64,000 bases of DNA from NCBI GenBank assembly GCA_964581515.1, contig CAZOOV010000008.1, forward strand, positions 24,570-88,569, read 5' to 3'. Made by a program: the position numbers and the translations under genes. Every line of letters begins with the position of its first letter. Positions within the stretch are counted from its first letter, which is position 1. The DNA is from an uncultured Methanosarcinales archaeon. Its GTDB lineage: Archaea > Nanobdellota > Nanobdellia > Woesearchaeales > JACJVV01. Under the pieces are notes generated by a model that saw nothing but the letters and a program-made list of their open reading frames with translations, ran no database searches and was not told the DNA's origin. Of this stretch, positions 14,166 to 61,690 are shown piece after piece.

Positions 14166-15140
14166 TTATGAACTCTCGTCTATAAATCTGTATTTATATT
14201 CTTCCCATATGGTTAGTGTGCTATAATCTGAAACAATCCCTGAGAAATTGTTCATGAACTCACGCATGAGTTCTCTGAACTCTTCTATGTTTTTAACTTC
14301 TATATCTATTTCAAGTTGCCAAGGTCCTAAGCAATTGACCATATAGATAATATTTTTCTTATTGAGGCAGTATTCAATAAGCTGTTTTTCTTTTTGTTGG
14401 TTCATATTGTTTAATGTTATCAATACTTTGAAGAATATGCCTTGAAGTTTGCTGACATCAGGCCATATCATATAATGCTCTATTATATGCGCTTTCTCGA
14501 GGTTTTTTATTCTTTTAATTATTGTGTCTGCGGATATCTTTAATTTTGTTGCAATCTCTGTCGCTCTTACTCTTGAATTTTTGGAGAGTTCTTTTAGGAT
14601 TGTTATGTCAATCTTATCTAGTTTAATATCAACTGGTTTTCCACCCCATTCAATTACTCTTTCAGTGGTTGCTTTTTTGTCAATCAGATAATCTCGGTAG
14701 AAATATTGAGCTTGTACGATTGTTGTTGTGTCGCTCTCTTTGATGAATCTCCCATATTTATTGTGAATGTCCATGATTATTTTGTGCAATTCAAACATAG
14801 ATTTGGCTTTTGGAGCATAGATTAAGGAATATTTTCCATCGCATGATGAGACCCAACTTATATTTTGATTTCTTATTAATGAGTCTATCATCTCTTTTTC
14901 TTCTTCATTAGTTATATTATGTAATTTAACATAAACTTTATGATGAGTGTATCCCAATCTTGAAGTGTTTATAATTGTTAGATAATTTCTTATTATTCCT
15001 TCTTTATGATATCTTTTGAGCCTGTAGAGGATGCTCTCTCTAGAGAGAGAAACCTTCTTTGCAATCTTTGAAAGAGGTTGTCTTGCATTTCTGTCAAGTT
15101 CATACAATATTTGTCTGTCTTTTTTGTCAAGTTTAACCAT
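14166..15140 (-). CDS. Lrp/AsnC-family transcriptional regulator with two tandem HTH-RAM units
   Basis: Two HTH segments (DKKDRQILYELDRNARQPLSKIAKKVSLSRESILYRLKR and DKIDITILKELSKNSRVRATEIATKLKISADTIIKRIKNL), each followed by an RAM-like domain. Confidence 0.6.
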   Translation of the reverse strand: MVKLDKKDRQILYELDRNARQPLSKIAKKVSLSRESILYRLKRYHKEGIIRNYLTIINTSRLGYTHHKVYVKLHNITNEEEKEMIDSLIRNQNISWVSSCDGKYSLIYAPKAKSMFELHKIIMDIHNKYGRFIKESDTTTIVQAQYFYRDYLIDKKATTERVIEWGGKPVDIKLDKIDITILKELSKNSRVRATEIATKLKISADTIIKRIKNLEKAHIIEHYMIWPDVSKLQGIFFKVLITLNNMNQQKEKQLIEYCLNKKNIIYMVNCLGPWQLEIDIEVKNIEEFRELMREFMNNFSGIVSDYSTLTIWEEYKYRFIDESS

Positions 15141-17193: not shown

Positions 17194-17360
17194 AATTATT
17201 TTATGATATTGCGCTTTAATAATACTTTTAAACAAACTTAAACTACTCAATCCAGAAAATTTGAAATAAAGGGGGAAATATTAAAATATGGCAAACCCAC
17301 GAGAAATCTTTGATTTCTGAGGGTTTCCAATCTTATATTGATTCATATAAAGGTGATAAA

Positions 17361-19004
17361 ATGGCAAACCCACAGGTACAACCGATATTTATTTTGCCAG
17401 AAGGAACTACGAAAACTTCTGGACTTAACGCTCAAAAGGTAAACATAGAAGCAGCTAAACAAGTTGCTGATCAAGTTAGATCCACTTTAGGTCCAAAAGG
17501 AATGGACAAGATGATTGTTGATTCTTTAGGAGATGTAATTGTAACAAATGATGGTGTAACAATCTTACAGGAGATGACAATAGAGCATCCTTCTGCAAAA
17601 ATGATTGTTGAAGTTGCTAAGACCCAGGAAGATGAAGTAGGAGATGGTACAACAACAGTTGTCGTTCTAGCAGGAGAATTTCTTAAGAATTCACTGGAAC
17701 TTCTTGAAAAAGGAGTGCACCCTACAGTTATAGTGAAAGGATACAGGCTAGCATCCAATAAAGCATTAGAAATACTTAATGATGTTTCTGAACCAATCAC
17801 TCTTCAAGATAAGTCAAAACTTATCAAGATAGCACAGACAGCTATGACAGGAAAAGGTGCAGAACAATCAAAAGAAATACTTTCAGAGCTTGTCGTCAAA
17901 GCAGTACTTGATGTTGCTGAGCAGGAAAGTGATAAGATCAATGTCAATATATCAAATATCAAGATTGAGAAAAAAGTAGGCGGAAGCATTGAAGATAGTG
18001 AACTTGTTGAAGGAATCATTCTTGACAAGGAAAGAGTTCATTCTGGAATGCCTAGAGCAGTTGAAAGTGCACATATAGCACTTCTTAATACTCAATTAGA
18101 GATAAAGAACACTGAAATAGATGCAAAGATACAGATAACTGATCCTTCACAGATGCAAGCGTTCCTTGACCAGGAAGAGGCTATGATTAAGAAGATGATA
18201 GATAAAGTAATAGCATCTGGAGCAAATGTAGTATTATGTCAGAAAGGAATTGATGATCTTGCACAGCATTATCTTTCAAAAGCAGGAATATTTGCTGTAA
18301 GAAGAGTAAAGCAAGGTGATATGAAAAAACTTGCTATGGCTACAGGAGCAACAATAGTGAATAATCTTGATGATCTTTCATCTGACGATCTTGGAAAAGC
18401 AGGAAAGATTGAGGAGATAAAAGTAGGAGACGAGAGCATGACTTATGTAAGGGAATGCAAAAATCCTAAATCAGTCACATTACTTGTAAGAGGCGGAACA
18501 GAACATGTAATTGATGAAGTAAAACGTGCTGTTGATGATGCAATTGGAGATCTTAGTGCGACACTTAATGTTGGGAAAATAGTCTACGGCGCTGGTTCAA
18601 TAGAAATTGAGATGTCTATGAAATTAAAGAAGTATTCAGAAAGTTTATCTGGCAGAGAACAATTAGCTGTTGAAGCATTTGCAAAAGCAATGGAAGTAAT
18701 TCCAAGGACACTTGCAGAGAATGCTGGTCTTGATCCTATCGATATAATAGCTGCACTTAAATCAGCACATGATAAAAAAGAGATTACAATGGGTATTGAT
18801 GTATTCTCTGGAAAAATTAAAGACGCTGCAAAGATGGGTGTTATTGAACCTTTGAAGATCAAGACACAAGCTGTATCTTCAGCAGCAGAAGTTGCTACTA
18901 TGATCCTTAGGATAGATGATGTTATCTCAGGTTCAACAGGTCCACCTCCAGACATGGGTCCAGAAGGAATGCCTCCTGGTGGAATGCAGATGCCTACTAT
19001 GTAA
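17361..19004 (+). CDS. ths: thermosome subunit (group II chaperonin)
   Basis: [29 protein letters not shown]..., the ATP-binding block [14 protein letters not shown], and the GGM-like C-terminal tail. Start placed at [10 protein letters not shown], preceded by AGGTGA. Confidence 0.9.
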
Positions 19005-19543: not shown

Positions 19544-20347
19544 ATGTTATACATGATTGGGCTTGGACTGGGTAATGAGAAAGATATTAGTATCAATGCT
19601 CTTGAAGCAGTGAAGAAATGTAATAAAGTGTATTTAGAATCATATACTTCAATACTTCAGACTTCTGTTGAGAATATGGAAAAGTTTTATGGTAAGGATA
19701 TTATCATTGCAAATAGGGAATTGGTTGAAAAGAAGGCAGAAGAGACCATACTTAAGGATGCATCTGAAGGTGATACTGCATTTTTGATAATCGGTGACGT
19801 ATTTGGTGCTACTACTCATGTAGATCTTGCTCTTAGAGCGAAGAAAGCAGGTATTGAAATAAAATATTTCAATAATGCATCTATCATGAATGCGATTGGA
19901 GTCTCTGGTTTGGAACTTTATAAATTTGGGAAAACTACATCAATGGTATTCTTTGAAGATAATTGGAAGCCAACAACTGCATATGATGTTGTTGAGATGA
20001 ATAAAAAAAATGGTATGCATACTTTAGTGCTTCTTGATATCAAGACTGCTGAGTCTTCAAAAGAAGATATATTGAAAGGAAATGATAAACCGCTTCCTCC
20101 TAGATTTATGACAGTTAATGATTGTCTGAAACAGTTTATTGAAATTGAAAAAGAGAAGAAAAAAGGGTTATTTGATGAGAATACTATTGTTGTAGGATGT
20201 GCAAGAATAGGAAGTGATGATTTCATTGTTAAATCTGGAACTGTTAAAGAACTTACTTCGTTTGATTTTGGAGGACCTTTGCACTGCGTAATTGTTCCAG
20301 GAGATTTGCATTTTATGGAAGAAGAATTCTTGAATTCGTATAATTGA
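19544..20347 (+). CDS. dph5: diphthine synthase (Dph5)
   Basis: MLYMIGLGLGNEKDISINALEAV..., a tetrapyrrole-methylase-like fold typical of Dph5; 267 aa. Confidence 0.85.
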   Translation: MLYMIGLGLGNEKDISINALEAVKKCNKVYLESYTSILQTSVENMEKFYGKDIIIANRELVEKKAEETILKDASEGDTAFLIIGDVFGATTHVDLALRAKKAGIEIKYFNNASIMNAIGVSGLELYKFGKTTSMVFFEDNWKPTTAYDVVEMNKKNGMHTLVLLDIKTAESSKEDILKGNDKPLPPRFMTVNDCLKQFIEIEKEKKKGLFDENTIVVGCARIGSDDFIVKSGTVKELTSFDFGGPLHCVIVPGDLHFMEEEFLNSYN

Positions 20348-20415: not shown

Positions 20416-20877
20416 TTGGTGGTACTTATGAGTGATATGGACAAATTAGAGTCAAATATTTATGCATCATTTAGTAGAGTTAAGTCAGATATTCTAAAGT
20501 TAAGCGGTGAAATCACAAAAATAAGCGAAGCTATGACTAAACTTGCTGAAGAACAAGGTGACATGAAAGAAAATATAGGCGAGATGGCAAAAAAAGTTGC
20601 AGTCTTCAACAGTTGTATGAGACAACTTGATAAGGTTGCAGATAAAGCAACATCTAGTCCTAAGACAAAAACAGTTGTTGTCGAAAAGATTAAAGTAAAG
20701 AAAGTAGCTGCAAAACATAAGAAGAAGACATATGTCGCTTCAAAATCAGGCAAGAAATTCCATATGCCAGAATGTATCTTTGCAAAGAACATCAAACCTA
20801 AAAGCATGGTTAAGTTCAAGAGCAAGAATGCAATGCTGAATAAAGGATACAAGCCATGTGTTTGCGTTCAGAAGTAA
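20416..20877 (+). CDS. coiled-coil protein with C-terminal Ada-like zinc-binding domain
   Basis: C-terminus FHMPECIFAKNIKPKSMVKFKSKNAMLNKGYKPCVCV matches the Ada metal-binding pattern (H-x-P-x-C ... A...GY[KR]PC.xC). Confidence 0.45.
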   Translation: MVVLMSDMDKLESNIYASFSRVKSDILKLSGEITKISEAMTKLAEEQGDMKENIGEMAKKVAVFNSCMRQLDKVADKATSSPKTKTVVVEKIKVKKVAAKHKKKTYVASKSGKKFHMPECIFAKNIKPKSMVKFKSKNAMLNKGYKPCVCVQK

Positions 20878-20928: not shown

Positions 20929-22485
20929 TTAATTTATGAAGCCTTCTATAACCATCTTTTCTGCATATTTTGCAGGTTCTTTTATTGCTTCTTGTGTGAT
21001 TCTTATGTGGGATTGCATTTTAAATCCTACATCAATTAAGTCTTCTATATGACATGTTGTAGTTCCTTGTATGATACTTCTTACTTCCATTGAATTATTA
21101 AGCATAGTTTCATTAATTAGTTCTGTTGATGCTTGTGGGTCTATACTTAATTTTACTTTATATTGACTTTCAAATTCTCTACAGAAATCACGTAAATCTT
21201 GTTGCATAGTATATATTCTTTCTTTTACCTTTTCTGGTTCAAGCAAGAAATGTATTCCATATGATGCTGCTGCTCTTCTGAATCTTTTTGCTATATCAAT
21301 TTTTTTTAATTCTCCCATATATACACCAACTCTAGTTTCATATTTCTTTCTTACAAAATCTTTTTGATTAGTATAAGTTATTACTTTTTCTGGTTCTTCA
21401 CTTCTTAGTTTTGGTGGATTTTGTTCTAAATAGTAATTTAATGTTTTTTGTGGGTCTTGGACGAGTTCAGGAGTTACCAAGAGTTCTCTACAACTCATTG
21501 AAGGCATACTATAAAGGAAAGGATATAATGCGTTATCAATCACTTCATGCAGCCCTCTTGCACCCATTCTTAGATCAATTGCTTTTTGCGCTAATACACC
21601 TAATGCATCTTCTTCAAATTCTATATCAATCCCATATGCACCAAACTCCAGTTGTTTATTTTGGATGACAGGAGAATTTTTCATGCTAAGTATGCTACCC
21701 AATTGCTCAACATCTAATTCATCAAGTTCTGATATGAAACTTATCCTTCCTAAGAATTGACTGATGAAACCATAATTTTCTAAAGCTTTTTTTACAGGTA
21801 CTTTATCTGTAACTGCACCATAACCTAAACTCTTTTTTTCAGTCTGGAGTCCGTCAAATGCTCCGCTAAGAATAAAAAATATATCGCTTGTGTTTAATGT
21901 GACTTCTTCTACTTTTCGTTCTTCTCTATAATTTACATACATTTCAGTCCCTTGAAAAATTCTAAGTAATTCTTCTTGTACTGATTTTCCTGTGATATCT
22001 TTACCAAATCCATCTGATGACGCTGCAATCTTATCTATTTCATCCAAATAGACAATTCCTAATTGAGCAATAGCTGGTATCTGGTTTGCTCTATCAAATA
22101 ATTTCTGGAACATGCCTTCTGTACTTCTTCCAACATAACCTGCTTGTGTATATTGGGTAGAATCAGTGATGTAATACGGGACTTTTAGTAATTTTGTTGC
22201 AAGTTCAAGCATATAGGTCTTACCAGAACCTGTTGGACCCATGAATAAGAGAATTGGCTTTGGTAGATGGTCATTATCTATTCCCATCGCCTCTTTATAC
22301 TGTAATTTCTTGTAATGTGAACAGAGGGCTGTTGCAAGTGTAATTTTTGCTTCTTCTTGCCCTACAACAAATTGATCGAGATATAGTTTGAATTCCATGG
22401 GTCTTAAGTCAAATTCCATTAAGTTCATGAATTCTCTTGCCATGTATTTTCTATTCATTATACATGTTTTAAATATTTGTATCAA
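20929..22485 (-). CDS. ClpX/HslU-like AAA+ ATPase (no N-terminal zinc-binding domain; extra C-terminal ~150 aa)
   Basis: LYLDQFVVGQEEAKITLATALCSHYKKL, Walker A LLFMGPTGSGKTYM, Walker B LGIVYLDEIDKIAASS, and sensor GARGL match the ClpX-type unfoldase family. No ClpP or HslV gene adjacent. Confidence 0.7.
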   Translation of the reverse strand: MIQIFKTCIMNRKYMAREFMNLMEFDLRPMEFKLYLDQFVVGQEEAKITLATALCSHYKKLQYKEAMGIDNDHLPKPILLFMGPTGSGKTYMLELATKLLKVPYYITDSTQYTQAGYVGRSTEGMFQKLFDRANQIPAIAQLGIVYLDEIDKIAASSDGFGKDITGKSVQEELLRIFQGTEMYVNYREERKVEEVTLNTSDIFFILSGAFDGLQTEKKSLGYGAVTDKVPVKKALENYGFISQFLGRISFISELDELDVEQLGSILSMKNSPVIQNKQLEFGAYGIDIEFEEDALGVLAQKAIDLRMGARGLHEVIDNALYPFLYSMPSMSCRELLVTPELVQDPQKTLNYYLEQNPPKLRSEEPEKVITYTNQKDFVRKKYETRVGVYMGELKKIDIAKRFRRAAASYGIHFLLEPEKVKERIYTMQQDLRDFCREFESQYKVKLSIDPQASTELINETMLNNSMEVRSIIQGTTTCHIEDLIDVGFKMQSHIRITQEAIKEPAKYAEKMVIEGFIN

Positions 22486-22594: not shown

Positions 22595-22761
22595 AGCCCC
22601 GTAGTGTAGTGGTCAATTAATGTTTATGCATTAGACCAATCATCCAGGATTTTGGAATGAGAACCTTTATTGTTTCTTATGAAAATGTCCTGGGACCTCG
22701 GTTCAAATATCAAAGTGGAGCGATGAAGCTCAAACTTTGTTTGAAAGTCCGGGCGGGGCTA
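22595..22761 (+). tRNA. intron-containing tRNA, my fold gives tRNA-Pro (anticodon UGG); at least two, probably three introns
   Basis: Acceptor stem AGCCCCG (22595-22601) pairs with CGGGGCU (22754-22760), discriminator A22761; U8 present. T-arm 5' strand CUCGG (22697-22701) and canonical T-loop UUCAAAU (22702-22708); the 3' strand CCGGG lies 40 nt away (22749-22753), implying an intron at 60/61. Anticodon stem AGGAU (22646-50) and loop UUUGGAA (22651-57), then a 29-nt insert and GUCCU (22687-91). D-arm region 22603-22645 is ~25 nt too long and did not fold for me. Confidence 0.55.
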
Positions 22762-22762
22762 T
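22747..22762 (+). repeat. attL: 16-nt gtccgggcggggctat, the 3' exon end of the tRNA
   Basis: Identical 16-mer recurs at 28974-28989; the 11-mer gggcggggcta recurs again at 29950-29960. Confidence 0.65.
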
Positions 22763-22825
22763 CTTCCTTTTTGAAAGGTTTTAGGGACAAGTTTTATATA
22801 TTGGTATTGTTTAGTTAGTTCTAAT

Positions 22826-24100
22826 TTGGTAGATTTGAAGCTGAAAAAGAAAAAAGAGAAGCAAAAAGAGCCTAAACCGATTAAAGGTATTTCTAAACAA
22901 AACTCTGATTTAATACTTCAATATTGTAGTGATATGGCTCAAGGAAAGAATGTTGCACCGACAAGTACTAAAGGTCCTAGAGCTAAAGATAGAGTTGGTT
23001 CTTTGAAAAGCAAAATGAAAAGAATGACTGAATTCATTGAAGAATTGTTTGGTGTTACTGATTTAAGAAATCTTACAGATGACTATGTTCTTGAATTGAT
23101 TAATGGTATGCGTACAGGTAAATATAGACAAGAAGATGGTAATAAATATGAGTCTGTAGATAGTTATGCAAAAACACTTGCTGCATTTTGGCATTGGTAT
23201 ATGCGTATTGAAAGGAAAAAAGATAATCATGTTCAAGATATTATGCTTGATGTTAAGAAAACAGGAGATAAAAAACCACCATGGGTTTATATGAATCAGG
23301 AAGAATTCAATAAATTTGTTAATAGATGTAAATGGGATTATAAGATATTATGCACCTTCATATATGATTCTGGTATTAGGTCACCCTGGGAATTGAAAAA
23401 TATTAAAGTTTCTGATATTACTTGGGATGAGAAAAATGAACGATATCAGTTATATATAAGAGATGAAGTATCAAAAACATTTGCTAGAAAGATTAAATTA
23501 ATGTTGTGTACTAAACTCTTAAAAGAATGGTTAGCAGAAAGAAATGGTAAGGAATTATTATTTGATTTAAATCCAGAAATAAATAATCAATATTTGAAAA
23601 GAGTTGCAGAAAGAATATGGGGAGAGAAAACAAGCAAAGGAAGAAAGAAATATAAGGATATTATAATGATGGACTTACGGCATAGTTCTGCTTGTTATTG
23701 GTTACCACGATATAAGTCTGAATCTAATTTAAAATATAGATTTGGTTGGAAAAAGTCTGATATGATACATTATTATTCAGAATTTTTAGGAATGACTGAT
23801 AATATTCAAGAAGAAGATTTACTTGTTGATGTGAGTGCAACTGAACTGCAAAATAAGTTTGAGGAAGAAAAGAATCAGAGATTACTTATGGAAGAAAATA
23901 TGCAACAGCAACAGAAAGAGTTTGAAGAATATAAAGAAGCTATGAATCCTATTTTAGAGAAACTAATGCAAGGTTTAGATGGTATGGAAATGGTTGGTAG
24001 ACAACCTAATGGTGCTGGTATATTTAGTAATGCTAAACAGAAGAATAAACCAAAGATAAGTAAGAAAGATGTTGAATTTGCTAAAGGTAGGAATAAATAA
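22826..24100 (+). CDS. int: tyrosine recombinase / integrase
   Basis: Box I-like SGIRSPWEL, HxxR-like MDLRHSSACYWL, and candidate catalytic Tyr in DMIHYYSEFLG. 64 nt from attL. Confidence 0.75.
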   Translation: MVDLKLKKKKEKQKEPKPIKGISKQNSDLILQYCSDMAQGKNVAPTSTKGPRAKDRVGSLKSKMKRMTEFIEELFGVTDLRNLTDDYVLELINGMRTGKYRQEDGNKYESVDSYAKTLAAFWHWYMRIERKKDNHVQDIMLDVKKTGDKKPPWVYMNQEEFNKFVNRCKWDYKILCTFIYDSGIRSPWELKNIKVSDITWDEKNERYQLYIRDEVSKTFARKIKLMLCTKLLKEWLAERNGKELLFDLNPEINNQYLKRVAERIWGEKTSKGRKKYKDIIMMDLRHSSACYWLPRYKSESNLKYRFGWKKSDMIHYYSEFLGMTDNIQEEDLLVDVSATELQNKFEEEKNQRLLMEENMQQQQKEFEEYKEAMNPILEKLMQGLDGMEMVGRQPNGAGIFSNAKQKNKPKISKKDVEFAKGRNK

Positions 24101-24136
24101 AAATGTTTATAGATTATAATATGCAAGAGATGTGTA

Positions 24137-25411
24137 ATGATGGATAAAAAGGGTCAAATAACTTTTTTTATAATTGTTGGAGTAATTTTCATATTATTAG
24201 TACTATTCTTTATTCTTTTCAATAATACTTCTTTTGAAGTGGACAATGTAAATAGCTTAGATACAGGTCAAATTCAATCTTATGTTACTTCTTGCATTGA
24301 AACAACAGCAGAAAAAGGAATTTATTTTATTTCATTGCAAGGTGGATATTATGAAACTTCAGTACCTTATCAACAATATGCTTTTATGGATATACCTATC
24401 TATTGGGATAGTCAGTCAAATATTCCTGATAAATATGTTATTGAACAAGAATTAATTAAGTATATCAAAGCAGAAGTAAACAACTGTCTGAATAATTTTA
24501 CTTTTTTAAAGAAACAAGGATATGATATAACAAATGGTTCTATTGTTGGTAATGCTGTTATAAATGACAATGGGATTGTATTGAACATTGAATATCCATT
24601 ACGTATAATATTTGGAGAGGAACAAGGTACAATTGATAGATTTAAAGCAACTATTGATTTTGATTTTCAGAGAATATATGGTATTGTAAATAAAATTATT
24701 ACAGAACAGATTAAGACGCCTAATGATATGCCATTAGGTTATATTTCTTATTTAGCTTTTGAAGAAAATTTTTTATTTGAGACCGTTAGTATAGAGAAAG
24801 ATGTTATACTTTTTGAATTAATATTTAATGATACTTATAATGGTCAACCTTTTATTTATGCTTTTGTAAGTAAGTATAATTGGTCAAATCTTGATTATGA
24901 TAATAGCTTATATGTTGAACCAATCCCATCATTTATCATTAATGAAAGTAGTACTTTTGAATATACAGTCAGAGCAAATGGAAGTAATGTTCAATATTCA
25001 GATTATACTGGTTTATTTGATATACATGAGAGTACAGGATTAATTATATTTAATACTGATAATGTACCTAATGGTGAACATAATATTTTGATTAAAGTAG
25101 TAGATGAAAATGGCAATGAGGGATATGCTTATATGCATTTGACCGTTGATATGCCTAATCAAAAACCAATTATTAATCCAATAGGTGATCTAACTGTAAA
25201 TGTTGCTGAAGAGTTTGTTTATACAGTTCAAGCATCAGACCCTTCAAATACATTTCTGACTTATCTTGATGATACTGGATTATTTAATATACATCCAATG
25301 ACAGGGAAAATAAAGTTTACACCTACATTAACTGGTAATTATTCAATAAAAATTACTGCTTTGAATGGAGAAGGTCATAGTTTTGAATACATGAGGTTAG
25401 AAGTAATATGA
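24137..25411 (+). CDS. element-encoded membrane-anchored protein with repeated Ig-like segments
   Basis: N-terminal TM (ITFFIIVGVIFILLVLFFILF). C-terminal half has two similar ~90-aa segments (FEYTVRANGSNVQYSDYTGLFDIHESTGLIIF and FVYTVQASDPSNTFLTYLDDTGLFNIHPMTGKIKF). Confidence 0.5.
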   Translation: MMDKKGQITFFIIVGVIFILLVLFFILFNNTSFEVDNVNSLDTGQIQSYVTSCIETTAEKGIYFISLQGGYYETSVPYQQYAFMDIPIYWDSQSNIPDKYVIEQELIKYIKAEVNNCLNNFTFLKKQGYDITNGSIVGNAVINDNGIVLNIEYPLRIIFGEEQGTIDRFKATIDFDFQRIYGIVNKIITEQIKTPNDMPLGYISYLAFEENFLFETVSIEKDVILFELIFNDTYNGQPFIYAFVSKYNWSNLDYDNSLYVEPIPSFIINESSTFEYTVRANGSNVQYSDYTGLFDIHESTGLIIFNTDNVPNGEHNILIKVVDENGNEGYAYMHLTVDMPNQKPIINPIGDLTVNVAEEFVYTVQASDPSNTFLTYLDDTGLFNIHPMTGKIKFTPTLTGNYSIKITALNGEGHSFEYMRLEVI

Positions 25412-27519
25412 GATTATCATATTTGTTGATACTGTTATTAGTTATTCCAGTAGTATTTGCACCATGTCCTCCAGGAGATAGTGGGGATAGTTGTGATTAC
25501 ACAAGTCAAGAAGATATAAATAAATTAGAAGGACAAGACCTTGTTACAGCAATTAATGAGGGTAAAATAACAGATCTTGATTTAGTGGATGATAATAGGC
25601 TTGCAGATGCTATTAGAACTGATCCTTCAATCTCAAATGATTTAGGGAATACTGACTTAGCTAGAGCAGTAAATCAAGATTTATCTCTAATGGATAATCC
25701 ATCTGTTATGGATGAGTTTGATTCAAGAGCACAATCCAATACGCATATACTAAATAATAATCCAAATATTAAGGAAAGGTGGTTTGCTGATAATGGAATA
25801 ACAGATGATGGAGCAGAGATTGAAAATTATGATGGTTCTATCGTTAGTACGAAAGGCAGTCAAGCAACTACATTTAATATTAATAATCATCCAGGAGCAA
25901 GAGTTACAAAAGATGGCAAGTTAGTATTGGTTGATGGAACAGAGATTGCTAATGCTGATGTAACTATTTTAGAAGATGGGAGTTTAAATATTGATGCTGG
26001 TAATACTGATTTGTCTGATTCTGACAGTGCAGATGTTCATGTGAATGCTGGAACTGTTCAGATAGATGATAAATTATATACCACCACAGATAGCTCTACA
26101 ATAAATGTAGCTATTAATAATGGTATAACAAAAATTACAGGTGAAAATATAATTGAATCTCAAGATGGCATAGTAACTGCTGCTTTTTCAGGTGAAATCT
26201 CACTATTTTCAGACGGACATATGGCTTTTGCTGCAAATACCGAATATAGTCAATATAGTAATGGAGAAAAATCTAAAACAGTTACTGTAAATGGTTTAAC
26301 TGAATTTTATACAAATGCAGGATGTGATGAAACAGTTAGTTGCATCCAATATGTTGATGGTAATATGAGAGTTATTGCAAAAGATGATAATAATATTGAT
26401 ATTAAGACGTTTGATGATTCAATAGAAAGATTAGTTGTTGATGGAATTAGTGATGAAAGTACAGTTGTTTTTAATGACAATGGAAATGTTGAGATGACTT
26501 TTTCTAATAATCCAGTTGTTGTTAAAGGTGAATTAACTCAACTGCAAACAGTAGTTGAAACGGATATTACTGTAAAAGAAGGAGTAGCAATCAAACAAAT
26601 ATATTCAAGTGATGGCGTAGAAGTAATCCCCATTAATCCCGATGGAGCTGATAGATTTGCTAATTCTATCTATTGGAAAAGAGTTAGTGAGGATGGAGAG
26701 TTTGTTGATTTGACTAGAGAAGAAGTGATTGAGCAATATGGTATTGACATTGTTTTTGGAGATGACATTGAAGTAAGTGAGGAAGTTCGACAAGCAGTTA
26801 TTAGTGATATTGTGAATTATTATGAAACTTTTCCTTCTCCTGATGATAAAGATGTTATAACTATTAAGATAGAAAGTAATAATGCACGAGGTTCAAGTTA
26901 TGATATACGGGATAATTCTATTAATTTAGTATTAAATGAAGATGGTTCTTTATGGGCAATAAGTGATGAAATAGGTAGTTTTGGAACAATAAGGCATGAA
27001 TTAGCTCATCTACATGAGGATCTTCGTTATCCTTCTTTGAGTAGAGCTAACATGGCGAGTCTTGGAGTGGAAGGAAGGTCTTATTTTGAAAGTGTTATAT
27101 TACAAACTCCATTTTTTCAAGAGTGGATGAATATACAAGGAATTGAATCAACTGCAGATTTAATTGCTAACCAGAATACCTTGACTACACTTAAACCATC
27201 AGATAATGAAGAGTATGGGAATGTAAGAGTTTGGAGTAATGAAGAATGTAATTCTCAAGATCCTTGTCATGGGTATATAAGACCTTATGGAACTGTTTTA
27301 ACTGAAGATTATAGTACTTATGTAGAAAGGATTACTGCTGATCCTACATTCTTTATGAGAAATAATTTAGTTGGTGATAATTCTGACCCACGTTACAGAC
27401 AAAAAATAGACCTTTTGCTTGAGCATAATTATATAACTCAATATGAATATGATGCAGTATTTTATCCTGAAAGGTATTTTACTGATGAAGAATTGCAACA
27501 ATTATTAGCTAACTCTTAA
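25408..27519 (+). CDS. element-encoded secreted protein with HExxH (zincin-like) motif
   Basis: Signal peptide (LLILLLVIPVVFAP); HELAHLHEDL at ~residue 530. Overlaps the upstream gene by 4 nt (ATGA). Confidence 0.5.
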   Translation: MRLSYLLILLLVIPVVFAPCPPGDSGDSCDYTSQEDINKLEGQDLVTAINEGKITDLDLVDDNRLADAIRTDPSISNDLGNTDLARAVNQDLSLMDNPSVMDEFDSRAQSNTHILNNNPNIKERWFADNGITDDGAEIENYDGSIVSTKGSQATTFNINNHPGARVTKDGKLVLVDGTEIANADVTILEDGSLNIDAGNTDLSDSDSADVHVNAGTVQIDDKLYTTTDSSTINVAINNGITKITGENIIESQDGIVTAAFSGEISLFSDGHMAFAANTEYSQYSNGEKSKTVTVNGLTEFYTNAGCDETVSCIQYVDGNMRVIAKDDNNIDIKTFDDSIERLVVDGISDESTVVFNDNGNVEMTFSNNPVVVKGELTQLQTVVETDITVKEGVAIKQIYSSDGVEVIPINPDGADRFANSIYWKRVSEDGEFVDLTREEVIEQYGIDIVFGDDIEVSEEVRQAVISDIVNYYETFPSPDDKDVITIKIESNNARGSSYDIRDNSINLVLNEDGSLWAISDEIGSFGTIRHELAHLHEDLRYPSLSRANMASLGVEGRSYFESVILQTPFFQEWMNIQGIESTADLIANQNTLTTLKPSDNEEYGNVRVWSNEECNSQDPCHGYIRPYGTVLTEDYSTYVERITADPTFFMRNNLVGDNSDPRYRQKIDLLLEHNYITQYEYDAVFYPERYFTDEELQQLLANS

Positions 27520-27941
27520 AACCTTTTAATTTTCTATCAGTTTCCATTTCTGGTATCCGATGGGTTGCGCCTAGAACAACCTCGCGGAACCGCCTTTTAA
27601 ATTTAGTAGTGAGGGAATACTTGGACTGAACTGCTAATTTAAATGGTTAGGTGAGCATAAATAATAGCGCAACTTATCGGAAATGGAAACGTACTGCTGC
27701 CACCACTATTACTTCTATCTGTTTCCAGAGTGGACAACGAAGGGTTTGCGCCTTAAATATTTTTGAAAATGCGTTAGCTATTTTCTTTTTAGAATTTTTT
27801 GATTAGTTACCTGTTTTGTTTTACACCATTTTACTATGTTTTACCCCTTATTGTGTAGTTTTGAGTACTGTTGTTACCGTCGAGGTTTAACACACTTTGT
27901 ACAAGTAGGGTATTTATTTATATAGAGTAAGTTATAACACT
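27520..27941. promoter_or_regulatory. structured non-coding region of the element, candidate replication origin and rep promoter
   Basis: GC-richer than flanks. Inverted repeat cagtttccatttctgg ... cggaaatggaaacg ~130 nt apart, a third copy ctgtttccagagtgg, and direct repeat gggtt(t)gcgcct. Lies directly upstream of rep. Confidence 0.35.
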
Positions 27942-28940
27942 ATGGACATCATGAAATACGATGTCAATCAAAAAAGTTTGTTGGAATTCCCTTATTCACT
28001 TGAAAATAAAGCAACATCTGGAACAAATAATAGAGAAAAAGAAGTAGAAGTAATTATTAATGGACTAAAAGAATATCTTGGTGTTGATGAATCATTGGAT
28101 CATGAGATATGGAAGTATATTAATCGATTAAGGTTGTGCTGTAAACAGTTTTTAACGCTTACATGTGATAATGGTTGTGGTAAGTATAAAGTTGGAATAG
28201 GTTGTAATTTAGCAGTATGTCCTGTGTGTGGTAAGAAACAGTACAAAAGGTTCATATCAAAATATAAGGATAACTTTAGAAGTTGGATGAATCCAAAACA
28301 TTTGACTTTAACATTAAAGAATTTAGATACAATAACAATAGAAGATTATAAAACGCTTTCTTATTGGTGGAAAAGGTTACGGCAAGAACTTAAAAGACAT
28401 GGTGACAAACATAACGTTAAGTATGAGTTTACTTATGGTATATGGGCATTTCATAATCATAACTATGGTAGAGGTTATCATTTACATTTACATATTGTCT
28501 TTGATGGTACAAGAATACCACAGCGTCTAATAAGTAGATTGTGGGAAAGGATTACTAAAGGTTCTAAAATTGTAGAAATACATGAGATAATAACAACTAA
28601 ACAGTTGAGTAAAGCAATTCAGTATGTTGGTAATTATGTAGTTAAGGGTGGTGGTAGTGAAGCTACTGTTCATACACTACTTGAAATGTTCTTTGCTAGT
28701 CGTAATGTGAGAAAATACAATACCTTTGGTAAGTTAAGGGTTGAGATGAAACGAGCTAAATTAACCTCTATCTGTCCTTTCTGTGGTGCTGTAATGGTAT
28801 TTGATGGTATTTTTATGAAATTTGAATTGGAGTTTACAAGAAAGCCATTCTTCAAGCCAATATTCAAACTGCGTCCAAAAACAGAAACACAGTTAAATAT
28901 CAACCACTTTACTTCAACTAATAATGCTGATAAAGCATAA
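27942..28940 (+). CDS. rep: rolling-circle replication initiator (HUH endonuclease Rep)
   Basis: Motif I FLTLT, CxxC...CxxC zinc finger, motif II HLHLHIVF (HUH), motif III YVGNYVVKG (Y-x3-Y...K), all in the canonical order. Confidence 0.7.
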   Translation: MDIMKYDVNQKSLLEFPYSLENKATSGTNNREKEVEVIINGLKEYLGVDESLDHEIWKYINRLRLCCKQFLTLTCDNGCGKYKVGIGCNLAVCPVCGKKQYKRFISKYKDNFRSWMNPKHLTLTLKNLDTITIEDYKTLSYWWKRLRQELKRHGDKHNVKYEFTYGIWAFHNHNYGRGYHLHLHIVFDGTRIPQRLISRLWERITKGSKIVEIHEIITTKQLSKAIQYVGNYVVKGGGSEATVHTLLEMFFASRNVRKYNTFGKLRVEMKRAKLTSICPFCGAVMVFDGIFMKFELEFTRKPFFKPIFKLRPKTETQLNINHFTSTNNADKA

Positions 28941-28973
28941 TCATGTTTCTTAATTCTTTCATAATGGTCGAGT

Positions 28974-28989
28974 GTCCGGGCGGGGCTAT
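28974..28989 (+). repeat. attR of element 1 (also attL of remnant islet): gtccgggcggggctat
   Basis: Exact 16/16 match to the tRNA 3' end at 22747-22762. Confidence 0.65.
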
Positions 28990-57705: not shown

Positions 57706-57949
57706 GAACTATTTCATATAATCTGAATATATATTATTTATGGCTTTTGAGGACAATAAACAGCAACATTTATAAAGGGATTGAGGTTCGTTTAGATTAC
57801 CTGTGATTGATGATGGTATTGTATAAATACTATATAATACCGGAATGAGGAGTTATTCTCATAATCGCATATAATGAAAAGGTTAAACCTTGAAGGAATT
57901 AATATATAAACGAGGTTTAAACTTTAAAACAACCGGAGGAAGTTTTAAA

Positions 57950-58441
57950 ATGTCAGAACTATCAAAAGAAAAACTTGACAATCTATATGAAGTTATAGAA
58001 GTCGCAAGATCAACTGGAAAAATTAGAAAAGGAACAAATGAAGCTACAAAAGCTGTTGAGAAAGGTAGCGCTAAAGTTGTAGCTTATGCAGAAGATGTTA
58101 CACCACCTGAAGTAATAATGCATATACCTTTGTTATGCAAAGAAAAAGGAATACCATGTTACGCTATACCTAGTAAAGAAGAATTAGGTTCTGCTGCAGG
58201 ACTTGTTGTTCCTACATCTGCTGTTGCAGTTGTTGATGAAGGTAAAGGTACTAAAGTTCTTCAAGAATTCTTGAAATCTGATAAAGCTGCTGCTCCAAAA
58301 GCAGAAGAAAAACCAGCTGAAGAAAAGAAAGAAGAAGTTAAAGAAGAAAAAGCAGAAGAAAAACCAGCTGAAGAGAAGAAGGAAGAAAAAGCTGAAAAGG
58401 AAGCAGAAGAAAAACCTGCTGAAGCTGAGAAGAAAGAATAA
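57950..58441 (+). CDS. rpl7ae: ribosomal protein L7Ae with ~60-aa Lys/Glu/Ala-rich C-terminal extension
   Basis: YEVIEVARSTGKIRKGTNEATKAVEKGSAKVVAYAEDVTPPEV...PCYAIPSKEELG is the L7Ae/L30e signature; tail AEEKPAEEKKEEVKEEKAEEKPAEEKKEEKAEKEAEEKPAEAEKKE. Confidence 0.85.
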   Translation: MSELSKEKLDNLYEVIEVARSTGKIRKGTNEATKAVEKGSAKVVAYAEDVTPPEVIMHIPLLCKEKGIPCYAIPSKEELGSAAGLVVPTSAVAVVDEGKGTKVLQEFLKSDKAAAPKAEEKPAEEKKEEVKEEKAEEKPAEEKKEEKAEKEAEEKPAEAEKKE

Positions 58442-58452
58442 GGTGTTGATAA

Positions 58453-58788
58453 ATGGCAGACGAAAAGACCAACAACACTGAAAAGAAGTCAAGTCCGGCT
58501 CCTAAACCTGATTCAAAATCAGCTGCTAAACCTGCTGCTGGTAAAGATGCTCAACAAGGAGTTCATTTTACAAGAGCTTTTTCTGCAAAAGTTGAAGAAG
58601 TTATTGGAAGGACTGGTTCACGAGGAGAAGCAACACAAGTACGATGCACTATCCTTGAAGGAAGAGATGAAAACAAAGTCATCAGACGTAATGTTAAAGG
58701 GCCTGTTCAGCCAGGAGATGTTTTGATGCTCAGAGAAACAGAAATTGAAGCAAGACCTCTTAATAGAAAAGGAAGGGGAAATGCATAA
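58453..58788 (+). CDS. rps28e: ribosomal protein S28e with ~40-aa Lys/Ala/Pro-rich N-terminal extension
   Basis: [54 protein letters not shown] matches S28e. Confidence 0.85.
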
Positions 58789-58800
58789 AGTTTACTATAG

Positions 58801-58986
58801 GTGAATAAAATGGTTAAATGCTCATTTTGTGGAATAGATATCCCTGAAGGAACAGGTTTGATGTATATCAAGAAGGATGCAAAAATATTTCATTTTTGTT
58901 CTAGAAAATGTGAAAAGAATACATTCAAGCTGAAAAGAAAACCTAGGACAGTTAAGTGGACAAAGTCCTACGTTAAAGGAGAATAA
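58801..58986 (+). CDS. rpl24e: ribosomal protein L24e
   Basis: MVKCSFCGIDIPEGTGLMYIKKDAKIFHFCSRKCEKN (C4 zinc-ribbon L24e). Confidence 0.85.
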   Translation: MNKMVKCSFCGIDIPEGTGLMYIKKDAKIFHFCSRKCEKNTFKLKRKPRTVKWTKSYVKGE

Positions 58987-58992
58987 GGGAAA

Positions 58993-59493
58993 ATGGCAAA
59001 AGAACAATGTTTAGTTTTGATTAAACCAGATGGTTTAGTTAAGTCATTAACAGGCAACATTATCTCAAAGCTCTCAGAAACTGAGCTTAAGATTGTTGCT
59101 GCAAAGATGGTCAGAGTAAGTAAAGAACTTGCTGAAGAACATTATAGACATTTAAAAGAAAAAGATTTTTTTGATGAACTCATAAAGTATATACAAGGGG
59201 CTTATCATACAAGAAGAGTCATGGCTATGGTTTATGAGGGTGATAATGCAATTGAGAAAGTTCGAAGAATTGCGGGAGCAACAAATCCTGAAGAATCAGA
59301 ACCAATCTCAATAAGAGGAAAATATGGGAGAATAACGACTGGAGGAGTATTTGAAAATGTAGTTCATGCATCAGAAAATCCTTCAGAAGCAGAAAGAGAA
59401 ATTAAACTTTGGTTTAATGCAAATGAACTTGTTTCTCATATTTATCCAACTGAAACTAATAAAATCGAGCAAGAAATGCTCGTTTGGAAATAG
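58993..59493 (+). CDS. ndk: nucleoside diphosphate kinase
   Basis: QCLVLIKPDGLVKSLTGNIISKL...NVVHASENPSEAEREIKLWF matches Ndk; Ala replaces the usual Gly in the NxxHGSD block. Confidence 0.8.
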   Translation: MAKEQCLVLIKPDGLVKSLTGNIISKLSETELKIVAAKMVRVSKELAEEHYRHLKEKDFFDELIKYIQGAYHTRRVMAMVYEGDNAIEKVRRIAGATNPEESEPISIRGKYGRITTGGVFENVVHASENPSEAEREIKLWFNANELVSHIYPTETNKIEQEMLVWK

Positions 59494-59503
59494 GTGATTA
59501 ATA

Positions 59504-61690
59504 ATGGCAGAAAAAATGGTTGACAGAATTAAAAATATCTCGTCAAATCCAGATAAAATTAGAAATATAGCTATCTGTGCTCATATTGATCATGGAAAGA
59601 CAACATTTTCAGATAACCTACTTGCAGGAGCAGGTATGATGTCAGAGAATCTTGCAGGTGATGCAAGAGCTCTAGATTTCCATGATGATGAAGCAGAAAG
59701 AGGAATTACAATCGATAGCGCTTCAGTAAGTATGGTACACGCGTTTAAAGAAGAAGAATACTTAATTAACCTTATCGATACACCTGGTCACGTTGATTTT
59801 GGTGGTGACGTAACAAGAGCTATGAGAGCTGTTGATGGAGCAATTGTATTATGCTGTGCGTCTGAAGGTATCATGCCGCAGACTGAAACAGTACTTAGGC
59901 AAGCTCTTAAAGAAAGAGTAAGACCAGTACTTTTTATCAATAAAGTTGATAGGTTGATTAAAGAACTGCAACTTACTCCGGAACAGATGCAGGAAAGATT
60001 TCTTGGTATAATCAAAAGCGTAAATGTACTTATACAAAAAATTGCAGAGAAAGATTATGGTGAGAAATGGCAATGTAATGTAGCTGAAGGACAAGTTGCA
60101 TTCGGTAGTGCTTATCATAATTGGGCACTTAGTATACCTTACATGCAGGAGAAAGGAATAACTTTCAAAGAGATAATTGATGCATATACAAGTGGTAATC
60201 AAGATGATATTGATGCACTTGCTAAAAAAGCACCAGTTCATGAAGTTGTACTTAACATGGTAATCAAACATCTTCCAAAACCAACTGAAGCTCAGGAATA
60301 TAGGATACCTAAGCTATGGCATGGCGACTTAGAGAGTGAGGATGGTATTGCTTTAAGAAAATGTGATCCAAATGGTCCATTATTCTATGTACCTGTAAAA
60401 ATTGTTATTGATCCACAAGCAGGAGAAATCATTTATGGGAGGCTTTTTAGTGGAACTTTAAAGAAAGGTACTGAAGTTTATCTTAACAGAGCAAAACAAA
60501 AGTCCAGAGTACAGCAAGTATTCATTGCTAATGGGGCTAAAAGAGAAATTACAGATGATGTACCTTGTGGAAATATTGTTTTGATTGGAGGAGTAAAAAC
60601 TCTTGTAGGAGAGACAATGACTACAAAAGAATCAGATGTATTTGATGAGATCTCACATCTTTTTGATCCAGTAATCTCTAAAGCTATTAAAGCAAAGAGT
60701 CCTGGTGATCTCTCAAAACTAGTAGATATCTTAAGGGTTATTCAGAAAGAGGATCCTTCTATTAAGATTGAGATTGATGAAGAGACTGGACAAAACTTAA
60801 TGCATGGAATGGGTGAATTGCATCTTGAAATCATTGAGAATAGAATTAAAAGTGAGAAAGGACTTGAAGTTGAAACGAGCCCTCCTATTGTAATATTTAG
60901 AGAGTCAATCTCAAAACCATCAACTGGTGAGTTCGAGGGAAAATCTCCAAATAAACACAATAAGTTTTACTTTACTGTTGAGCCGGTCGAAGAAGCTGTT
61001 GCTTTAGCAATGAAAGAGAAGAAAATTGTAGATCAAAGAGTCAAAGGAAAGAATCTTGAATTAAGAGATACATTTGTTGAGTGTGGATATGACACTAAGG
61101 TAGCTCTTAAGATAAAAGAAATCTACAATGGAAATATATTCATTGATGCAACAAAAGGACAAGTTCATATGATTGAAGTTATTGAGATGATCCTTGATAC
61201 TTTCAAAGACGTAATGAACAATGGTTCACTTGCAAGAGAACCTTGCTTTGGTGTTAAAGTAATACTTCATGACATGAAATTGCATGAAGACGCTATTCAC
61301 AGGGGTCCAGCACAGATCTATCCTGCAATCAGGGAAGGTATTAGAGGAGCAATGCTTCAAGGTGCTTCACCAATCCTTTTTGAACCGGTTCAAGTTCTTC
61401 AAATTGAAGGTCCAGATGAATATATGGGTGAACTTTCAAAGCTTGTTACAAGCAAGAGAGGTCAACTTCAAGATGTTGAACAAGAGAATGGAAACGTTAC
61501 CATGACTGCTAAAATGCCAGTAATGGAACTTTTGGGATGGTCATCTGACTTAAGGTCTTCAACTTCTGGTAGAGGTATCTCATCTGTAATTGATCAGATG
61601 TTTGAGAAACTTCCAATGGAATTGCAAGATAAAGTAATTAAGCAGATTGTTGACAGAAAAGGACTAACTGACGGACAACTTGGACTTTAA
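59504..61690 (+). CDS. fusA: translation elongation factor 2 (aEF-2)
   Basis: NIAICAHIDHGKTTFSDNLLAGAGMMSE, LINLIDTPGHVDFGGDVTRAMRAVDGAIVL...GIMPQTETVLRQAL; 728 aa with EF-G/EF-2 domain order. Confidence 0.9.
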   Translation: MAEKMVDRIKNISSNPDKIRNIAICAHIDHGKTTFSDNLLAGAGMMSENLAGDARALDFHDDEAERGITIDSASVSMVHAFKEEEYLINLIDTPGHVDFGGDVTRAMRAVDGAIVLCCASEGIMPQTETVLRQALKERVRPVLFINKVDRLIKELQLTPEQMQERFLGIIKSVNVLIQKIAEKDYGEKWQCNVAEGQVAFGSAYHNWALSIPYMQEKGITFKEIIDAYTSGNQDDIDALAKKAPVHEVVLNMVIKHLPKPTEAQEYRIPKLWHGDLESEDGIALRKCDPNGPLFYVPVKIVIDPQAGEIIYGRLFSGTLKKGTEVYLNRAKQKSRVQQVFIANGAKREITDDVPCGNIVLIGGVKTLVGETMTTKESDVFDEISHLFDPVISKAIKAKSPGDLSKLVDILRVIQKEDPSIKIEIDEETGQNLMHGMGELHLEIIENRIKSEKGLEVETSPPIVIFRESISKPSTGEFEGKSPNKHNKFYFTVEPVEEAVALAMKEKKIVDQRVKGKNLELRDTFVECGYDTKVALKIKEIYNGNIFIDATKGQVHMIEVIEMILDTFKDVMNNGSLAREPCFGVKVILHDMKLHEDAIHRGPAQIYPAIREGIRGAMLQGASPILFEPVQVLQIEGPDEYMGELSKLVTSKRGQLQDVEQENGNVTMTAKMPVMELLGWSSDLRSSTSGRGISSVIDQMFEKLPMELQDKVIKQIVDRKGLTDGQLGL

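Follow-up and report, generated by a model that had tools for sequence, protein, structure and literature searches.

The 64,000-nucleotide stretch of archaeal DNA analyzed here (from contig CAZOOV010000008.1; "the window") encodes a ClpX-like AAA+ ATPase on its reverse strand. A first-pass annotation, made from the sequence alone, had described this protein as an orphan in an archaeal context. The context is indeed archaeal: the window also encodes a thermosome, diphthine synthase, L11, Spt5 (NGN-KOW), FtsZ, TrmB-type regulators, and an L7Ae-S28e-NDK-aEF2 cluster. The protein itself turns out not to be an orphan: many archaeal contigs encode members of its family, a coherent group of proteins with about 480–540 residues. 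We show that this family is a distinct, uncurated ClpX-related AAA+ subfamily, which is encoded by a stand-alone chromosomal gene in many Woesearchaeota-like DPANN archaea.

The gene is monocistronic, with a convergent open reading frame (ORF) of 153 residues downstream and a divergent tRNA gene 110 nucleotides upstream (Table 1). Besides the TTG start given in the table, the ATG codons of M10, M15, M20, and M23 are alternative starts. A public gene call of identical sequence, on a 6.3-kb Logan contig (P0001), starts at M20 and has 499 residues. The G+C content at the gene is unremarkable for the window, which ranges from 29% to 37%.

The ATPase module and the C-terminal extension

Judged by sequence, the homology of this protein to ClpX is far beyond chance, and the protein is of the ClpX/HslU type and nearer to ClpX. 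Its best NCBIfam model is PRK05342 (ClpX), with E = 3.5e-75 and 253.4 bits over residues 25–350, which is below the equivalog cut-off of 359. The other ClpX model, TIGR00382, gives 225.8 bits and does not reach its equivalog cut-off either (370.75). Two relatives, P0122 (292 bits) and P0003 (313 bits), are likewise below the ClpX equivalog cut-off. The HslU model matches with E = 1e-40 and 140 bits (cut-off 362), and the match is split over two stretches of the protein. Among the Pfam families, AAA_2, AAA, and ClpB_D2-small (1.3e-7) were matched. In a sequence search of the PDB, ClpX chains were the best hits (E = 6.6e-58), followed by mitochondrial ClpX and then by HslU.

The predicted structure tells the same story. 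With the family alignment as input, AlphaFold2 gave a model whose mean predicted local distance difference test (pLDDT) score is 82.7. When we compared this model to the PDB with Foldseek, the best 50 matches were all ClpX, with target-normalized template modeling scores of 0.73–0.82 and ~35% identity across ~345 columns.

We found no grouping with a known archaeal AAA family. The PAN, FtsH, and Orc1 models from NCBIfam give about 15–17 bits (the PAN cut-off is 500), and the range across PAN, Cdc48, FtsH, and CdvC is 15–30 bits, versus cut-offs of at least 500. The CdvC model gives just 25 bits on the relative P0122 (cut-off 650). PADLOC returned nothing beyond weak generic AAA matches for the gene.

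The first-pass annotation had reported Walker A, Walker B, and sensor motifs, and all of these are seen in alignments to E. coli ClpX. The ClpX-type helix that it quoted, VVGQEEAKITLATALCSHYKKL, lies at residues 40–62. (Our own alignments used E. coli ClpX and HslU sequences; the one with ClpX is in agreement with that from the PDB search.) The pore-1 motif GYVG is the aromatic-hydrophobic loop that grips the substrate. At the RKH position, canonical ClpX has PPQGGRKHP; our protein has YVNYREERKVEE, which is three residues shorter and lacks the His. The RKH motif is not conserved among the members of the archaeal family.

ClpX docks on its peptidase by inserting an IGF tripeptide in hydrophobic pockets of ClpP (PMC7547079). 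The first-pass annotation had raised this loop as a point to check. A tripeptide of this type, LGY, is present, and its position is conserved across the family. The loop around it (residues 216–228) falls short of its E. coli counterpart by at least 10 residues, has pLDDT below 50, and is predicted to be disordered. It has Tyr in place of Phe, and we regard it as a candidate docking loop. A hydrophobic-G-F/Y tripeptide occurs at the IGF position in 22/22 of the archaeal-type sequences, in 24/24 sequences of the related "bacterial-long" family that is described below, and in 17/17 canonical or mitochondrial sequences. In a motif alignment, HslU lacks the IGF loop altogether. Among the archaeal-type proteins, the length and the remaining sequence of the loop vary despite the kept tripeptide. 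Because the tripeptide is retained at ~30% overall identity inside a variable and disordered loop, it is probably under selection, which suggests that there is a docking partner.

Two other statements of the first-pass annotation, that the zinc-binding N-domain is missing and that there is an extra C-terminal region of ~150 residues, agree with our results. The Pfam search with our protein did not match PF06689, the zinc-binding N-domain, which the canonical ClpX sequences from our searches do carry. About 25 residues precede the AAA+ module, and these include one Cys. With the tRNA gene just 110 nucleotides upstream, there is no space for a separate N-domain. At the other end, homology to ClpX stops at about residue 350–358, which leaves a further ~160–168 residues.

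A disordered linker (residues ~357–375) leads into the C-terminal extension. Pfam and PDB sequence searches with the C-terminal domain gave noise only, and a word-seeded search with the C-terminal 174 residues alone found no homologs. When folded alone on a 19-member alignment, the extension gave a confident model (pLDDT 86.5): a long helical hairpin, then helix-strand-helix-helix-strand-helix-helix. This is the order of elements in the genuine lid of the full-length model (residues 259–355). The lids of DnaA, RFC, and MuB are listed in the lid-like comparison of the C-terminal domain model. Also, hhalign aligned the core of the family's C-terminal domain (residues 435–514) to the family's own lid (residues 278–355) with a probability of 95.5% and E = 1.6e-8. 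The alignment matches the blocks F..YGI.L.F...A...L and L.VT...V.DP...L, and the sensor-2 motif GARGL is absent from the copy. Because the model topology and the hhalign result agree, the extension is a degenerate internal duplication of the lid. Its conserved motifs in the family alignment include Y389 and an AAxYG block.

Table 1. Positions of the ClpX-like gene, of its domains and motifs, and of other features, counted from the first nucleotide of the window
Feature	Position	Strand	Details
ClpX-like AAA+ ORF	20929-22485	-	518 residues with TTG start at 22485; stop codon 20929-20931
AAA+ large (alpha/beta) domain	21736-22404	-	Residues ~28-250, including the GQEEAK box-II helix; Pfam AAA_2/AAA, ClpX alignment, pLDDT mostly >85
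Walker A GPTGSGKT	22216-22239	-	Residues 83-90; aligned to E. coli ClpX
Pore-1 loop GYVG	22129-22140	-	Residues 116-119; G116 and G119 invariant in the family alignment
Walker B D148-E149 in VYLDEIDK	22039-22044	-	Alignments
L220-G221-Y222 at the ClpX IGF docking position	21820-21828	-	E. coli ClpX alignment; G221 invariant
Arginine finger R247 (FLGRIS)	21745-21747	-	Invariant; aligns with FIGRLP of E. coli ClpX
Genuine AAA+ small (lid) domain	21418-21723	-	Residues ~255-356; Pfam ClpB_D2-small 1.3e-7, model, alignment
Sensor-2 GARGL	21550-21564	-	Residues 308-312; aligned to E. coli ClpX
C-terminal extension	20932-21372	-	Residues ~372-518; predicted helical hairpin, then a second, degenerate lid-like domain without sensor-2
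Duplicated lid core	20944-21183	-	Residues 435-514
Tandem helix-turn-helix protein	14166-15140
Thermosome	17310-19004
Diphthine synthase	19544-20347
Convergent 153-residue ORF	20416-20877	+
tRNA-Gln(UUG), three introns	22595-22761	+	Exons 22595-22616, 22640-22656, 22688-22708, 22749-22761
Integrated element, ~6.2 kb	22747-28989		16-nucleotide direct repeat GTCCGGGCGGGGCTAT at 22747-22762 and 28974-28989
Tyrosine integrase (divergent)	22826-24100		In the element; weak Phage_integrase match
Two large proteins	24137-27519		In the element
Rep-like protein	27942-28940		In the element
L7Ae-S28e-NDK-aEF2 cluster	57890-61690

The archaeal-type family and its bacterial relatives

To find relatives, we ran an exhaustive phmmer search against 1.84 billion representative proteins. 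About 20 proteins of 480–540 residues are 28–37% identical to our protein and match its residues ~20–510. Examples are P0122, P0123, P0125, P0126, P0128, P0133, P0134, P0136, P0137, P0139, P0140, P0142, P0147, P0156, P0161, P0170, P0183, and P0184. They share a common layout, in which a ClpX-like AAA+ module, with no N-domain before it, is joined by a linker to the conserved C-terminal domain. P0137 (MBS3166078.1) is recorded as "AAA family ATPase [Candidatus Woesearchaeota archaeon]". Judging by these relatives, the window, too, probably comes from a Woesearchaeota-like DPANN archaeon. A scan of metagenomes added three further archaeal-type loci. When we searched with a profile of the family, canonical ClpX dominated the matches and no new members emerged, and a scan of IMG/VR matched only the AAA+ part, with no homolog of the C-terminal domain.

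Members of the family lie among archaeal housekeeping genes. Their neighborhoods include deoxyhypusine synthase and agmatinase; aEF1a and S10; TYW3 and TrmI; L11; and SRP54, prefoldin, and LonB. In two other archaeal lineages (loci L015–L018), the family gene is directly flanked by an L7Ae-S28e-(L24e)-NDK-aEF2 cluster, with GlmS on the opposite side. The window has its own L7Ae-S28e-NDK-aEF2 cluster, but it is ~35 kb from the ClpX-like gene, so the chromosomal position of the family gene must have moved between lineages. When we clustered the neighboring ORFs of 11 archaeal-type loci, no neighbor was common to more than three related contigs.

One groundwater archaeal lineage has two divergent paralogs, P0140 and P0128 (531 and 520 residues), in tandem on the same strand (L008, 7343–10564; L009; L019, 4348–7569). 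This arrangement suggests a possible hetero-hexamer. Some of the relatives P0129, P0131, P0132, and P0121 hold two ClpX-like AAA+ modules per chain (776–987 residues), and a family from Candidatus Caenarcaniphilales has three such modules in 1,238 residues. P0263, which is not a close relative, has an apparent ClpX-like module that is fused to an FtsH-type AAA module and an M41 peptidase. Besides P0263, we saw no fused protease in the longer relatives, just repeated AAA+ modules.

A second set of relatives is bacterial. These "bacterial-long" proteins, which are annotated as AAA family ATPases, have 500–665 residues, lack the zinc finger, and can be aligned to the archaeal proteins across the C-terminus. 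Their sources are Desulfotignum, Thermodesulfobacteriota, Spirochaetota, metagenome-assembled genomes of Pseudomonadota, and Verrucomicrobiales. Comparing the C-terminal domains of the archaeal and the bacterial-long proteins, hhalign gave a probability of 98.4% and E = 6.7e-15. Neither family matches a curated NCBIfam model at the equivalog level, and the C-terminal domain that they share has no Pfam match.

The bacterial-long genes are linked to heme synthesis. After dereplication, hemB is the next gene downstream in 11/13 groups, with a median gap of 176 nucleotides. Five of the 13 groups have a radical-SAM AhbD-like gene and three have AhbA. In the Desulfotignum locus, NCBIfam models identify AhbC (723 bits; cut-off 650), porphobilinogen synthase (489 bits; cut-off 297), and AhbD (558 bits; cut-off 500), and in locus L023 they identify AhbA (171 bits; cut-off 140). 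The loci with this ClpX-like paralog of ~580 residues are L002 (8001–13021), L021, L023–L052, L054, L055, L058, L063, and L065. Our literature search, which was partial in its coverage and is weak evidence, found no paper on ClpX with DPANN archaea, on ClpP with DPANN, or on ClpX with ahbC or ahbD. The supplementary tables of genomics papers on DPANN or Woesearchaeota have no entries for clpP or clpX.

To place the protein among these groups, we inferred a neighbor-joining tree, which is a distance method, from 338 columns of the AAA+ module, with 100 bootstraps and with HslU as the root. Canonical and mitochondrial ClpX form a clade with 75% support (97% for the bacterial sequences alone, without the fungal ones), and our protein lies outside it. 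The bacterial-long proteins form a separate clade with 61% support, and its core has 93% support. Our protein is placed beside P0138 and three proteins with two ClpX-like modules. This supports the conclusion that it is not a canonical ClpX; the tree, being distance-based, leaves the monophyly of the archaeal proteins and the direction of transfer unsettled. The first-pass annotation had left open whether the gene was acquired horizontally or highly diverged. A diverged lineage fits its place outside the canonical clade and its score below the ClpX cut-off, and a recent copy of a canonical clpX, given also the unremarkable G+C content, does not.

We also examined the linkage of these genes to clpP. 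Using tblastn, we classified the 80 loci from the metagenome scan and searched within 8 kb on either side for clpP. Among the 41 loci with canonical clpX, 30 have clpP, directly upstream; this is true of 0/36 bacterial-long loci and of 0/3 archaeal-type loci. Similarly, in a scan of genomes, both of the canonical clpX loci, which are bacterial, have clpP upstream (E ~1e-86). The first-pass annotation had noted no ClpP or HslV partner nearby, and tblastn with the E. coli proteins found neither in the 64-kb window. Among 51 of the largest ORFs of the window, including the ClpX-like ORF, the only proteases that Pfam identified are a subtilase and a prepilin peptidase. The archaeal-type neighborhoods that we examined contain no proteasome genes.

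The integration hotspot and neighboring genes

The divergent tRNA gene was spotted by eye. It encodes a tRNA-Gln(UUG) and is interrupted by an intron at three sites: in the D-loop, past the anticodon loop, and in the T-loop. The hand-spliced 73-mer was accepted by ARAGORN. From the unspliced 64-kb window, neither ARAGORN nor Rfam (at the gathering threshold and at E ≤ 1) reported a tRNA, and ARAGORN with intron and relaxed options offered only a poor Ile model, which we disregarded. Other intron-rich tRNAs may be hidden in the window.

The 3' end of this tRNA is the attachment site of an integrated element: the 16-nucleotide repeat GTCCGGGCGGGGCTAT, which bounds the element, repeats the 3' end of the tRNA region. 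Between the repeats are the integrase gene; two large proteins, one of 424 residues with an Ig-like (He_PIG) domain and the other of 703 residues without matches; and a rolling-circle Rep-like protein whose N-terminus is of the IS91 zinc-binding type. The element may represent a small plasmid or virus that integrated in a DPANN archaeon. The Logan contig L001 also has the integrase end of the element beside the same ClpX-like gene. The first-pass annotation had placed the ClpX-like gene just upstream of a tRNA/integration hotspot. The hotspot exists, but the gene is on the 5' side of the tRNA and outside the element. Because the attachment repeats enclose only the integrase and Rep side, the ClpX-like gene is not part of it.

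In the convergent ORF downstream of the ClpX-like gene, the N-terminal half is coiled-coil-like, and toward the C-terminus there is a stretch rich in Cys and His (KKFHMPECIFAKNIKP...GYKPCVCV). By eye, this stretch resembles a small metal-binding domain. The ORF had no match in Pfam or PHROG. Farther away, we considered the tandem helix-turn-helix protein as a siroheme decarboxylase (AhbA/B) and rejected it: it scores 38 bits versus a cut-off of 140, and Lrp/AsnC regulators match it better.

Possible functions and comparison with known systems

As a whole, we consider the best explanation to be that the protein is a ClpX-type hexameric unfoldase of a distinct archaeal subfamily that docks on a partner encoded elsewhere, and we think this is probably correct. 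By homology, the protein would assemble into a hexameric ring like that of ClpX. Its GYVG loops would grip the tail of a substrate, and the hydrolysis of ATP would pull the polypeptide through the central pore, also as expected from homology. From its position and by analogy, the extra lid-like domain may replace the missing N-domain and bind substrates or adaptors, or it might control the assembly of the ring. Given the conservation of the tripeptide, the ring would most likely dock on a partner with ClpP-like hydrophobic pockets and feed it unfolded protein. That this partner is a ClpP-family peptidase encoded elsewhere in the genome seems to us an evenly balanced proposition, and a different docking partner seems improbable. 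A ring without any partner, acting purely as a remodeler as mitochondrial ClpX does for ALAS, is a substantial possibility by analogy, although we lean against it.

Several observations weigh against this explanation. The first concerns docking itself: the protein has the shortest docking loop in the family, with Tyr replacing Phe, and its pore-2 loop, which in ClpX contacts the N-terminal loops of ClpP, is two residues shorter than that of ClpX. No clpP was found in the 8 kb past the end of the window, and 0/11 archaeal-type neighborhoods contain clpP, versus 30/41 canonical clpX loci. Archaea have been described as lacking ClpP (PMC6600665). In the bacterial sister family, the linkage is to heme enzymes and not to a peptidase, which fits a chaperone-like role. 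In the tree, the archaeal-type sequences lie outside both of the ClpX and bacterial-long clades on long, unresolved branches and do not form a supported clade. Lastly, hexamer formation, ATPase activity, and unfolding are predicted only from the resemblance to ClpX, and any role of the extra lid domain is conjecture.

A stand-alone remodeler or chaperone, which would partly unfold specific clients without a peptidase and whose tripeptide loop would have another role, would account for several of these points, and we take it seriously even though we find it doubtful. A peptidase neighbor was found in no context, ClpP is reported to be absent from archaea (PMC6600665), and the docking and pore-2 loops are shortened. 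Also, mitochondrial ClpX, independently of ClpP, partly unfolds ALAS in the heme pathway and thereby activates it (PMC7077987, PMC7547079), and the bacterial sister genes next to hemB (11/13 groups) and ahbA/C/D parallel this. The difficulty is the hydrophobic-G-F/Y tripeptide, whose retention in 22/22 sequences is not easily understood if nothing docks there. As for the link to heme, the sole candidate in the window (14166–15140) is a tandem Lrp/AsnC regulator and not AhbA/B, and DPANN archaea generally lack heme biosynthesis.

If there is a peptidase, the system might instead be an ordinary ClpXP, with a clpX acquired from bacteria and, at another place in the genome, a canonical clpP as its partner. 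Woesearchaeota and Pacearchaeota carry chaperone systems acquired from bacteria, DnaK/DnaJ/GrpE and GroEL/ES (PMC8204110), so an acquired ClpP is not implausible. Also, ClpX is the closest curated family and the IGF-type tripeptide is present and conserved. We nevertheless consider an ordinary ClpXP to be unlikely. The protein fails both equivalog cut-offs (253 vs. 359 and 226 vs. 370.75); it lacks the zinc finger and the RKH loop and has an extra domain that is not seen in canonical ClpX; the tree excludes it from the clade of canonical ClpX (75%, or 97% without the fungal sequences); and clpP is adjacent in none of the 11 archaeal-type loci, as compared to 30 of 41 canonical ones.

The location of the gene and its archaeal host bring up two other explanations. 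Being 110 nucleotides from the tRNA that serves as the integration site and 340 nucleotides from the integrase, the gene might be cargo of the mobile element or of an archaeal virus, such as an unfoldase for anti-defense or takeover, and its AAA+ module does match the phage family phrog_4339 (E = 6e-61). This is very hard to reconcile with the attachment repeats, which bracket the integrase and Rep side only, or with the homologs, which are beside genes for ribosomal proteins, aEF2, aEF1a, GlmS, TrmI, and deoxyhypusine synthase with no integrase. IMG/VR matches only the AAA+ part, and PADLOC gave only weak generic AAA matches. Partnership with the proteasome, which the first-pass annotation had suggested, fares little better. 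Only the archaeal host and the lack of ClpP or HslV nearby suggest that the protein could be a cap, derived from ClpX, of the archaeal 20S proteasome; no computed result favors this, and we consider it highly improbable. The protein has no C-terminal HbYX motif (it ends in ...EGFIN, with no penultimate Tyr), the family members show no conservation at their C-termini, the PAN model gives 15–17 bits versus 500, and the neighborhoods contain no proteasome genes.

More speculatively, these DPANN archaea might truly lack ClpP and might have long kept the docking tripeptide for another ring-shaped partner, such as a ClpP-fold protease of the NfeD/SppA type or some other assembly. Or, the archaeal family and the bacterial hemB/ahb-linked family might be an old sister lineage of ClpX whose ancestral activity was to activate enzymes by partial unfolding, with the duplicated lid recognizing the clients. 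We doubt that either of these is right. ClpXP is usually described as bacterial or organellar, and here a ClpX-type family occupies core chromosomal positions in divergent DPANN archaea. It retains the docking tripeptide but differs in its putative recognition architecture, with a duplicated lid in place of the zinc finger. This raises the question of whether some archaea have a ClpXP-like protease or whether the ClpX motor has found a new use there, by itself or with a different partner. Through their common C-terminal domain, the archaeal proteins are linked to a bacterial family in hemB/ahb operons, which hints that the connection between ClpX and heme known from mitochondria may be wider.

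Our preferred explanation, a ClpX-type unfoldase with a partner, can be compared with four known groups. With bacterial ClpX (PRK05342/TIGR00382; PDB 6wrf and 9ndj), the AAA+ module is ~35% identical over ~320–345 residues and has the same fold. The shared features are Walker A and B, GYVG, the arginine finger, the sensor-2 motif GARGL, and a hydrophobic-Gly-aromatic tripeptide at the IGF position. Unlike bacterial ClpX, our protein lacks the C4 zinc N-domain and the RKH loop, has shorter pore-2 and IGF loops, and has LGY instead of IGF. It also has a helical C-terminus of ~165 residues (the duplicated lid), no adjacent clpP, and an archaeal host. HslU is on the same HslU/ClpX branch of AAA+ proteins and, like our protein, has no zinc finger. 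However, HslU has a large I-domain inserted in its ATPase domain and no IGF loop. Our protein has no insertion between Walker A and Walker B, in either the model or the alignment, and there is no hslV in the window.

Mitochondrial ClpX (CLPX/Mcx1) has the same ClpX-type motor and is a strong structural match (9dvy). It differs in grouping with canonical ClpX and in having no duplication of the C-terminal lid in our alignments; it is also reported to have an insertion of its own within the AAA+ domain. The bacterial-long proteins, such as P0003 from Desulfotignum phosphitoxidans (581 residues), differ from ours in having an N-terminal domain of ~60 residues, an insertion of ~15 residues at the RKH position, and the HslU-like motifs ETGYVGG and DVSRxGVQ. 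Their genes are beside hemB and ahbA/C/D, whereas the archaeal gene has no such neighbors or any other conserved neighbor. Both lack linkage to clpP (0/36 for the bacterial-long loci) and a zinc finger, and both are below the ClpX cut-off (313 bits for P0003). What the bacterial-long proteins share with our protein is the homologous C-terminal lid-like domain, together with a retained IGF-type tripeptide.

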